64,000 bases of DNA, taken from positions 64,001 through 128,000 of the forward strand of contig JAEOTA010000004.1 in assembly GCA_016840085.1 (NCBI GenBank). Reading direction: 5' to 3'. Every line of letters begins with the position of its first letter. Within the stretch, counting starts at the first letter, position 1. The notes below the pieces were generated by a model. It did no database searches and was not told the origin of the DNA. It worked only from the letters and a program-made list of their open reading frames with translations. Position numbers and translations under genes: made by a program. Shown here one piece after another: positions 14,085 to 16,440 of this stretch. The stretch comes from Promethearchaeota archaeon. GTDB lineage: Archaea > Asgardarchaeota > Lokiarchaeia > Sigyniarchaeales > SOKP01.

Positions 14085-14540
14085 TTAAATTTGAAGGACT
14101 AAGTAAATAACATAAAATAAAATGAATGTCAGGGAATCAAATATATAAAACAATACAAACTCATATTTCTTAATTTTTTCATAAAGTAAATAAGCACATC
14201 CTAAACACATTAAACCCCCTAAACCAACCAAAATTATATCAAAAATGGCATTAACAATGCTATCTTGTCGATTCTGATACTTTAAGCCCCACTCATAAAC
14301 GAGAGTATTTTCAATAAGTTCCCAAAATATTCCAAATATTATCGTACCAATGAGAAAGGCGAACCAATGGGACATTTTTACTTTAAAATTATTTGGGTCA
14401 ATTAAATTTCTTAATGTTGATATTAGCGAGAGTAAAGCAAAAACCACAATTCCCATACAAATATGACCAAAACTGAAAAAATCAAATATAGATCGATTTA
14501 TTTCACTTGGAAGCGTTGCCCATAGCCAGTTAAATAACAT
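14085..14540 (-). CDS. small membrane protein (DUF2585-like / putative metal-binding hydrolase fold)
   Basis: FDFFSFGHI..G, WELIEN and DSIVNAIFD motifs in 4-5 TM helices. Confidence 0.6.
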   Translation of the reverse strand: MLFNWLWATLPSEINRSIFDFFSFGHICMGIVVFALLSLISTLRNLIDPNNFKVKMSHWFAFLIGTIIFGIFWELIENTLVYEWGLKYQNRQDSIVNAIFDIILVGLGGLMCLGCAYLLYEKIKKYEFVLFYIFDSLTFILFYVIYLVLQI

Positions 14541-14676
14541 ATTTCTCTCCTTTTGATAATTTATATATAATTTAAAATAATTTATTATAAATTTAATTTA
14601 GAAAGTAATGTAATTAGGTTATCATTTTTATTAAAACCGTTAAATAATATTAACGATTTTTATTAAAAAATGTTTA

Positions 14677-14902
14677 CATGAAGTTTACGTTCAATGCCGT
14701 TTATTCATGAGGGCTAAAACCCGTAGCCTCTATCCGATGGCCAAAAGGCATCTCGGACTACTTAATCTTCTGAAAGATTATCATTCTAGTGCTATACTAG
14801 ATGGGCTTTCAGCTACATGTCCTCCCGATTCGGGAGCAATTTTCTAAAAATGAGGGAAGTCCTCTGAGAATACAACTATAGTTCCAATGCAATGATACTA
14901 TA
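14677..14902. ncRNA. candidate structured non-coding RNA or mobile-element remnant of unknown class (minus strand slightly favoured)
   Basis: GC-enriched island in an AT-rich spacer with 8-9 consecutive stems and a possible pseudoknot; no ORF. Confidence 0.55.
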
Positions 14903-15156
14903 AAAATAAATAATTCTTTCTTGGTTCACCTTTTATTTAAAACATTTAATTATTTTATTTCAATTAAAAAGAGATTCCTATTTAAATTGAATGAGTCATA
15001 TGAATTTTGATATAATAATTGGATGTCTTGAGACATTAAAGCTAACAATAAACAAATTATATTAAAATTTTTTAATATGAATTAAGATTTTTAATATATT
15101 TTATGATTATATATAATCAGGATAATAATACTATCAAATTTATTTTGTGTTAATCT

Positions 15157-16440
15157 TTGCAGAAGAAAATTGCATTTGTTCTTTATTATAATAAAGATAA
15201 TATTTATAGCTTAAACTCTATAGCTGCAGCTCTTGAGACTGGAGAATATTTTGAGGGTATAGAATTTTATTTTATTTTAAAAGAAAATGATCTTATACGA
15301 AATCTCCAGAATATTATTGATAATCATGATACTATTTTGGTAGGGATATCTTTTTTTACAACTCAACTATTTGATACTCATGATTTAATAAGAAGCCTTA
15401 AATCTAAATATGGAGATAAATGCTTATTCGTTGCCGGAGGACCCCATCCTACTGGGGATCCAATAGGAACTCTTGAAATGGGATTTGATTTAGTAGTAGT
15501 TGGCGAAGGAGAAGAAACAATTAAAGAGCTTATGAAGAACCTATTTCTTAATAAAAAATTAGATAATATTAAAGGAATAGCTTATTTGAATGAAAAAAAT
15601 AATTATATTTATACAGGAAAAAGAGCACCAATTAACCTAGATGAATATCCTCCTTTTCCAATAAAAAATACTAGATTTGGAGCAATTGAAATAACAAGAG
15701 GTTGCCCATATGTATGCTACTTTTGTCAGATCCCTTATATTTCAGGAACAATCCCAAGGCATAGAAATATAGAGTCTATCTGTAAATCTGTAAAAATTTT
15801 ACATGATTATTATGGTGATCTTACAGATATTAGATTTATAACTCCAAATGCTTTTTCTTATGGTTCTAAAGACGGAAAAAAAGTAAATCTGGCTAAACTT
15901 AAAGATTTACTTTTAAATATTAGAGAAATAATTGGTGAGAAAGCTAAAATTTTTTTTGGAACTTTTCCATCAGAAGTAAGACCTGAACATGTAAATCAAG
16001 ATACTTTAGATTTAGTTTTAAAATATGCTGATAACGATAATATTACTATAGGTGCTCAATCTGGTAGTCAAAAGATATTGGAATTATGCCATAGAGATCA
16101 TACTTCAGAAGATGTGTATAAAGCTGTTAATCTGGCATTAAAGTCAAAACTTAAGGTTAATGTAGATTTTATCTTTGGGTTACCTGGAGAAATAGAGGAA
16201 GATATTGCACTTACAATTAAAATGATGAGAAATTTATCAGAATTAGGAGCAAGAATTCATGCCCATTCATTTATTCCCTTACCACAGACACCGTTTGCTA
16301 AGCAACCTGTTAAGCATTTGAATGAAGCTTATAAAAAAGCAATAAAAAATTTAATATCAAAAGGATATGCGTTTGGAGATTGGAATAAACAAGAAAAGAT
16401 AGCATTTAAAATTGCCCAATATTTAAAAAATAACATTTAA
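15157..16440 (+). CDS. B12-binding domain / radical SAM protein (TIGR04013-like)
   Basis: VAGGPHPT, VVGEGE, EITRGCPYVCYFC CxxxCxxC, GTFPSEVRPE. Confidence 0.88.
   Translation: MQKKIAFVLYYNKDNIYSLNSIAAALETGEYFEGIEFYFILKENDLIRNLQNIIDNHDTILVGISFFTTQLFDTHDLIRSLKSKYGDKCLFVAGGPHPTGDPIGTLEMGFDLVVVGEGEETIKELMKNLFLNKKLDNIKGIAYLNEKNNYIYTGKRAPINLDEYPPFPIKNTRFGAIEITRGCPYVCYFCQIPYISGTIPRHRNIESICKSVKILHDYYGDLTDIRFITPNAFSYGSKDGKKVNLAKLKDLLLNIREIIGEKAKIFFGTFPSEVRPEHVNQDTLDLVLKYADNDNITIGAQSGSQKILELCHRDHTSEDVYKAVNLALKSKLKVNVDFIFGLPGEIEEDIALTIKMMRNLSELGARIHAHSFIPLPQTPFAKQPVKHLNEAYKKAIKNLISKGYAFGDWNKQEKIAFKIAQYLKNNI

Follow-up and report, generated by a model that had tools for sequence, protein, structure and literature searches.

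We found that positions 14617–15109 of the window (the whole 64,000-nucleotide stretch of Promethearchaeota archaeon DNA that was analyzed) very probably derive by deletion from an IS607-family IS encoding the serine recombinase TnpA and TnpB, as a protein-less, non-autonomous element that is stranded in this genome and probably inert. From its parent, the element would have retained both transposon ends and a structured RNA that overlaps the 3′ end of the parental tnpB and extends to the right end, i.e., an omegaRNA scaffold on the minus strand of the window, and it would have gained a 5′ hairpin module with a TATA-like box. In genomes that carry the parent IS, TnpA would mobilize such copies, and the mini-element RNA, ending in ~20 nt of flanking sequence, would guide TnpB in trans to vacated sites, the cutting of which would restore the element. 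An earlier note on this DNA had described a structured island of ~230 nt. The island is real, but the unit to which it belongs is 493 bp long with defined ends at 14617 and 15109.

The Structured Island Is Supported by Covariation

All the stems that had been listed for 14677–14902 were located at their coordinates in the window sequence, together with a competing GTAGC/GCTAC pair. GC enrichment was confirmed as well, with 37–42% GC over 14650–14900, compared with 11–22% in the flanking spacer and 29.5% genome-wide. When folded as a single sequence, the island has an energy of −59.7 kcal/mol on the plus strand and −65.5 kcal/mol on the minus strand, corresponding to z scores of −2.26 and −3.07, respectively, relative to dinucleotide shuffles. 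This gain in stability over shuffles is modest, and the comparative evidence is the strong part. Homologs and covariation, which the earlier note had called for, were both found. In nine gene-less homologs from seven genomes, we defined a minus-sense consensus of 34 pairs in seven helices and observed many compensatory changes, with 16 of the 34 pairs changed on both sides, a level of covariation that was reached by none of 500 shuffles. In the same homologs, 97.1% of the cells are paired, compared with 36–49% when the partners are slid by one to three columns. Eight compensatory pairs were already visible with four full-length copies. As in an omegaRNA, the secondary structure is conserved and backed by covariation.

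A pseudoknot between the loop GGGUUU and an upstream AAGCCC had also been proposed. Seven copies contain both segments and could form it, but it needs register shifts, shows one informative change only, and has lost its partner segment by deletion in the G041/G042 copies. This pseudoknot in the element RNA is unproven.

The Rfam scan that had been suggested matched no family. None of the Rfam 15 covariance models reached gathering score in the window, 14450–15200 gave just one chance-level match (E 9.9), and a search of five related loci, including omegaRNA-type motifs and the group I intron, found nothing relevant. Several other identities were tried and rejected. For RNase P RNA, prompted by a GAGGGAAGUCC motif, the RNA is located elsewhere in the genome, as is the signal for SRP RNA, and no tRNA or tmRNA was found in the island. 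A C/D box or K-turn in HP7 was discarded because the CUGA-like box is not kept (CAGA and CAAA in homologs). Neither the frame nor the start codon is conserved for a 46-aa ORF at 14707–14847, where indels are not in threes, or for a mini-ORF of 10–12 aa at 14678. The RNase P RNA matches are two adjacent, head-to-tail sites on the minus strand of contig C66 (L005 and L006: 15325–15647 and 15651–15981), which score 130 and 91 bits, above the gathering score, and could be either a tandem gene duplication or an assembly artifact. The sole SRP RNA signal (L007, contig C88: 61763–61874) is partial and sub-threshold, with 35.6 bits over model positions 128–244; in this lineage, SRP RNA may have diverged from what the Rfam archaeal model describes.

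The Element Is a Discrete Insertion at a Site That Is Vacant in Relatives

The island lies between two divergent genes, a DUF2585 membrane gene (14085–14540, minus strand) and a B12-binding radical-SAM gene (15157–16440, plus strand). In eight congeners, these genes are separated by ~115–135 bp, without any element. An exact empty site, GAAAGTAATGTAATTA/TATATAATCTGGATAAT, is seen at a locus (L107) whose radical-SAM protein is 83% identical. In total, nine congeners have an empty site, with the ~125-bp intergenic region intact, one of these sites being exact. GTAATTA/TATATAATC in the empty site becomes GTAATTA-(GGTTATC...ATGATTA)-TATATAATC in the occupied one, with the TA doubled. Since the same flanks enclose GGTTATCA...ATGATTA in the window, the element corresponds to 14617–15109, with TA on either side. 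Conservation among ~30 copies opens exactly at GGTTATCA and closes at ...ATGATTA. A direct repeat at 14617/14923 was rejected as the element ends because conservation runs on to 15109. In other copies, the flank consensus is YTA/TAT, and the right flank opens with TAT in six of the seven copies that were parsed. The coordinates of the element and its parts are listed in Table 1.

In the closest relative (L082/L103), whose neighbor protein is 94% identical, the insertion is shared and the element is mostly deleted. A deletion of ~730 bp, from window position ~14278 (inside the DUF2585 gene) to ~15004, removed the whole folded part and truncated the membrane gene, leaving only the last ~105 bp of the element. 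These findings show that the element is a discrete insertion, whose site is vacant in relatives and whose short core has been doubled. Insertion took place at TTA^TAT, with duplication of TA, before this genome and its closest relative diverged.

None of the ORFs within 14617–15109 exceeds 46 aa. The element hence has no transposase of its own and is non-autonomous. When compared with a MITE, its terminal inversion is imperfect only, the AT-rich ends being inverted relative to each other with 75% identity over 48 nt, and its duplication is limited to 2 bp (TA), as expected for the core of a serine recombinase and not for a DDE-type duplication. The element sits 47 nt upstream of the TTG start of the radical-SAM gene (ATG in a relative). 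The flank TATATAAT on the left-end side probably also holds the TATA box of this gene at 15157, which the insertion missed by one base.

Table 1. Coordinates of the 493-bp element, its parts, and its immediate flanks in the window
Feature	Position	Strand	Basis or remark
Whole gene-less mini-element, very probably IS607-type	14617–15109 (493 bp)	−	Sharp conserved ends, exact empty site
Right end (RE) and left end (LE)	RE 14617; LE 15109		Sense is that of the parental tnpA/tnpB, i.e., window minus strand
Would-be guide segment, minus sense TAATTACATTACTTTCTAAA	14597–14616	−	By the omegaRNA position rule, if transcription crosses the right end
Flanking TA (one of two copies of the doubled 2-bp core; target, TTA^TAT)	14615–14616	.	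Empty versus occupied site
AT-rich subterminal right-end block	14617–14671	−	Common to TnpB-linked and gene-less copies
Palindrome CGTTAA-N6-TTAACG	14638–14655		Inside the right-end block
A6 run (U6 in minus sense)	14665–14670		Inside the right-end block
Scaffold domain HP1–HP3, with conserved AAGUAGUC and GAUAG segments	14672–14772	−	Homologous to the last ~45 tnpB codons
Extra folded module HP4–HP8	14773–14905	−	
HP6 and HP7, with linker	HP6 14822–14836; HP7 14852–14864	−	Common to other mini-element families
Conserved GCAUUGGAA	Loop of HP8	−	
A-rich TATA-like block, minus sense TTTAAATAAAAGGTG	14927–14941	−	~25–35 nt upstream of HP8; in the class-B copies aligned
Left-end half, with conserved blocks ~14983–15000 and 15045–15062 and terminus 15083–15109	14906–15109	−	Right-hand parts of eight copies aligned
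TA at the element terminus (other copy of the doubled core)	15108–15109	.	
Left-end-side flank TATATAAT, predicted TAM side when the site is vacant	15110–15117	.	Also in the empty site

Relatives Point to IS607-Type Parents Encoding TnpB

BLAST, which the earlier note had put forward for finding copies and adjacent tnpB/tnpA, was nearly blind: beyond the one full copy in the genome, it detected just 27 matching nt on contig C2 and 75 in one congener. Similarity among the first copies opens upstream of the hairpins at AGGTTATCA. Using a degenerate pattern for hairpin 2, we identified three further copies in other genera, all of them beside unrelated genes. It was a covariance model that found copies with tnpB and serine recombinase. 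In brief, a model named R1 was built from 14672–14768 and searched in 135 genomes of the family. It matches 28 of the 135 genomes, with 9–17 matches each in several of them (17 being the maximum), which is the signature of a repeat and not of a housekeeping RNA. While the match in the window is at 14674–14772, R1 also matches 103-nt sites within TnpB ORFs, on the strand opposite to the model. At 12 loci, the match is antisense to the model and falls in the final ~45 codons of a TnpB-like ORF; the tnpB stop codon is 34 nt past the match. Nine of these 12 ORFs encode ~430–470 aa, and three are truncated (356, 332, and 136 aa). The tails of the TnpB-like ORFs display the motifs ...ESYTSKCSSLD...NADVNGALNILRKVVGDGF...DRGCWFQPVRIRD..., and both full-length ORFs that were scanned contain PF01385 (OrfB_IS605) and PF07282 (Cas12f1-like TNB). 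When compared with the C termini of the relatives' TnpB, a degenerate TnpB C terminus, KVVRDAFWPSDRGYGF followed by a stop, is readable on the minus strand of the window at 14720–14770.

Evidence on the upstream part of the parents came from three loci. In L023, a Resolvase ORF (PF00239) is found directly upstream of a TnpB with PF01385 and PF07282, and L022 and L047 retain internally deleted tnpA remnants. The presence of a Resolvase ORF upstream of tnpB, together with these remnants, indicates that the parents are IS607-type elements. R1 matches split into two classes, TnpB-linked and ORF-less, and the window copy belongs to the latter. The sharp start GGTTATCA is common to all copies, whether tnpB is present or not. 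The gene-less elements of G146 and G055 are near-identical copies of a ~500–550-bp repeat with a sharp second end, ...TTTTAATAAAAATGATGATTA, next to which the first tnpA codons are kept; an intermediate deletion form is represented by L047. The left end ...TTTTAATAAAAATGAKGATTA is common to L047/L022-type and gene-less copies and aligns with 15083–15109 of the window, the right half of which aligns with the left-end region of the G146/G055 copies up to 15109. As for an IS607 derivative, the autonomous relatives have a serine-recombinase TnpA with TnpB, and both ends are common. The window copy is 83% identical over 490 nt to a copy in another genus, and the family has therefore spread or been conserved across genera.

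These findings bear out one of three options left by the earlier note, an orphan omegaRNA-like scaffold or non-autonomous IS remnant, because the homologous segment lies within the tnpB 3′ end of serine-recombinase elements. Another option, a new ncRNA class, is ruled out by this same homology.

G-U Pairs in TnpB-Linked Copies Favor the tnpB Sense

In the TnpB-linked copies, G-U pairs number 37 versus 12 in favor of the tnpB sense, which agrees with the known position and polarity of TnpB omegaRNAs (PMC10055086, PMC10691335) and with the minus-strand reading that had been suggested together with a TATA-like box. Sense-exclusive G-U pairs in the gene-less copies number 28 (minus) versus 21 (plus), and a strand call from G-U versus A-C in these copies was set aside as indecisive. 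By homology, the structured RNA is placed as an omegaRNA would be, at the tnpB 3′ end and on the same strand, reaching the right end. The omegaRNA position and polarity rule places the guide beyond this end (PMC10691335, PMC10055086).

TATA-like boxes and T-runs bracket the folded core on both strands. The minus-strand TTTAAATA box reported for 14934–14941 is present there, and the block at 14927–14941 is a candidate internal promoter for a minus-sense RNA. TATA-like boxes are common in AT-rich DNA. The U6 run (14665–14670, minus sense), between the scaffold and the right end, could terminate transcription before the guide.

An Extra Hairpin Module Recurs in Other Gene-Less Repeats

The HP7 pattern is matched in 18 of the 135 genomes. 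We aligned 18 copies of the module, from the window family and four other flank types, and found the HP6–HP7 core again in at least three other gene-less repeat families, with HP6 showing compensatory changes. The minus-sense consensus over 14822–14864 consists of HP7 (GAGG-N5-CCUC), a linker (AWUUGKGGAA), and HP6 (YCYC-loop-GRGR). The module sits on different scaffolds at L063–L066 and L070 (G045 and G041), L067–L068 (G058), and L071 (G146). The G045-type right-end part is 77% identical over 134 nt (E 1.5e-24) to a resident tnpB tail on contig C89. In L047 (G146 contig C42, ~545–567 and 808 onward), a copy of the HP7 module and a second, partly deleted element share one orientation, the module lying ~260 bp upstream of that element's right end, which suggests tandem or nested insertions.

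Comparison of HP4–HP8 with the 12 TnpB-linked loci and the seven resident tnpB loci gave blastn/nhmmer noise only, and an origin from decayed tnpB coding sequence or a tnpB-embedded module was rejected since local alignment was at shuffle level. Because HP4–HP8 has no detected counterpart in the tnpB that were compared, equivalence with the parental omegaRNA is established for HP1–HP3 only. HP4–HP8 might be the 5′ part of stand-alone guide RNAs, serving in their expression or stabilization. A bolder idea, to which we give only a minor share of our belief, is that HP6–HP7 and the upstream A-rich box would form a portable cassette for expression, processing, or TnpB recruiting, making guide-RNA-only elements self-sufficient TnpB parasites.

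No Cognate Partner of the Element Was Found in This Genome

Apart from the one full copy, the genome contains a right-end fragment of ~100 bp on contig C2, and R1 has no match in the genome besides the window copy. The C2 fragment (L002 ~1448–1545; C2 ~71170–71290) runs from AGGTTATCA... to the first half of hairpin 1, where unrelated sequence takes over. It is flanked by the 3′ end of an FtsX-like permease gene on one side and by that of an ITPase-like gene on the other. No cognate TnpB was found in the genome, the best tblastn match being 44% identical with a different tail, and an IS607-type TnpA fragment had no match there either. The assembly is 98.8% complete, and a cognate parent element may lie in the missing part.

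Seven full-length TnpB paralogs are encoded in the genome, on contigs C85, C19 (three loci, outside the window), C78 (two loci), and C89, and these are ~43% identical to the cognate-family TnpB. The tails of the resident tnpB match the window just in a ...AGUCC...GGAUAGAGG core and the adjacent hairpin, and in their ...AUAACC end; otherwise, comparison of these tails with the element gave blastn noise only. Six of the seven loci have near-identical ends, ...GGGAAATTAAAAATAACC. From these features, the resident genes appear to be an active-looking TnpB-only IS family, distinct from the source of the window element.

The earlier note had raised the possibility that 15–20 nt of flank match a target elsewhere. 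With up to two mismatches, the would-be 20-nt guide matches nothing in the genome but its own flank, and one 16-mer match with one mismatch is at about chance level by our estimate. Since there is a single full copy and no cognate TnpA or TnpB was found, we read the element as a stranded relic, to which the deletion in the sister genome also points. It is probably inert here, its hairpins reflecting past selection.

Alternative Explanations

Could the copy nevertheless be functional in this genome, its minus-sense RNA being used in trans as an extra guide by a resident TnpB paralog? The seven full-length TnpB genes, with tails that display the ...AGUCC...GGAUAGAGG core, the hairpin, and the ...AUAACC end, offer potential partners, and trans use of stand-alone omegaRNAs has been documented in other systems (PMC10691335). 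However, these proteins are just ~43% identical to the cognate family and the tails are otherwise unalignable, the guide has no genomic target besides its own flank, a U6 run stands ahead of the right end, and the closest relative has deleted the RNA part, all of which makes such use improbable. A role in cis fares worse still. The earlier note had considered a switchable leader for the membrane gene, and the element could more generally act as a mobile promoter or structured leader through outward minus-strand transcription into the DUF2585 gene. The gene at 14540 indeed lies next to the minus-sense RNA and in the same direction, 76 nt downstream of the element, and there is a TATA-like box at 14934–14941. 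Yet the gene keeps its own 76-nt upstream region, it adjoins its divergent neighbor without the element in nine congeners, where the ~125-bp intergenic region serves it, and homologous copies adjoin unrelated genes. The deletion in the closest relative, moreover, took the 5′ part of the gene along with the RNA part. The leader option is contradicted on both counts, the element-free congeners and this deletion, and we regard any such cis role as very unlikely. A cis-regulatory element of a neighbor was also rejected, as the homolog loci lack synteny.

Instead, the folded core might be a trans-acting ncRNA of either strand that is independent or was recruited by the host and just rides on the element, with a functional HP6–HP7. 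It is true that several repeat families that otherwise differ have all kept HP6–HP7, with compensatory changes, and that promoter-like and terminator-like signals flank the core on both strands. But the core is always found within repeated gene-less elements with transposon ends, its distribution is patchy (the motif being in 18 of 135 genomes), and it is absent at orthologous sites and lost in the closest relative, which leaves this reading with next to no credibility. A stranded derivative of an IS607-family IS is the explanation that we prefer.

Relation to Known Systems and Significance

The element is of an already known kind, that of stand-alone omegaRNAs and PATE-like mini-IS. Stand-alone mobilized omegaRNAs working in trans have been described (Altae-Tran et al. 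2021, as summarized in PMC10691335), and so have PATE-like mini-elements encoding omegaRNAs (Meers et al., PMC10055086). Like these, it is a protein-less mobile unit with transposon ends and a TnpB guide-RNA scaffold, it is multi-copy where the effector-encoding parent is present, and TnpA and TnpB are expected to act in trans. In contrast, the parent is IS607-type, with a serine recombinase, a TA core, and dsDNA ends, and not an IS200/IS605 element with ssDNA hairpin ends. Furthermore, the host is an Asgard archaeon, there is an extra 5′ hairpin module, and no cognate partner was found in the genome.

As in the IS607 TnpB elements examined in the Clostridium botulinum IStron study (bioRxiv 10.1101/2023.11.20.567912; PMC10690162), the relatives have a serine-recombinase tnpA followed by tnpB, and their structured RNA overlaps the tnpB 3′ end and reaches the right end. 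Unlike in the C. botulinum IStron, no group I intron signature is seen here (no Rfam match). The layout is also similar to that of the ISDra2 TnpB reRNA/omegaRNA (IS200/IS605), in which the tnpB 3′ end encodes part of the scaffold, which stops at the right end and precedes a guide taken from the flank. There is, however, no sequence or model similarity to ISDra2, the pseudoknot is unproven here, and the right end is separated from the last strong hairpin by a much longer, AT-rich stretch (~55 nt). The element further differs from IS607 TnpB elements in that its target core is TA within TTA^TAT and its scaffold sequence family is not in Rfam. The IS607 core has been reported as GG, unlike the TA seen here.

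Taken together, these findings remove a candidate "new ncRNA" and give it an identity, with exact ends, target site, and polarity. This aids the annotation of Asgard (Promethearchaeota) genomes, where GC-richer hairpin islands in AT-rich spacers recur. The locus also offers a before-and-after record, consisting of an empty site, an occupied site, and a partial deletion. As an archaeal, IS607-derived example, it joins the guide-RNA-only mini-transposons, which are known mainly from bacteria, and the common HP6–HP7 module raises a testable question, namely how stand-alone TnpB guide RNAs are expressed or recognized.
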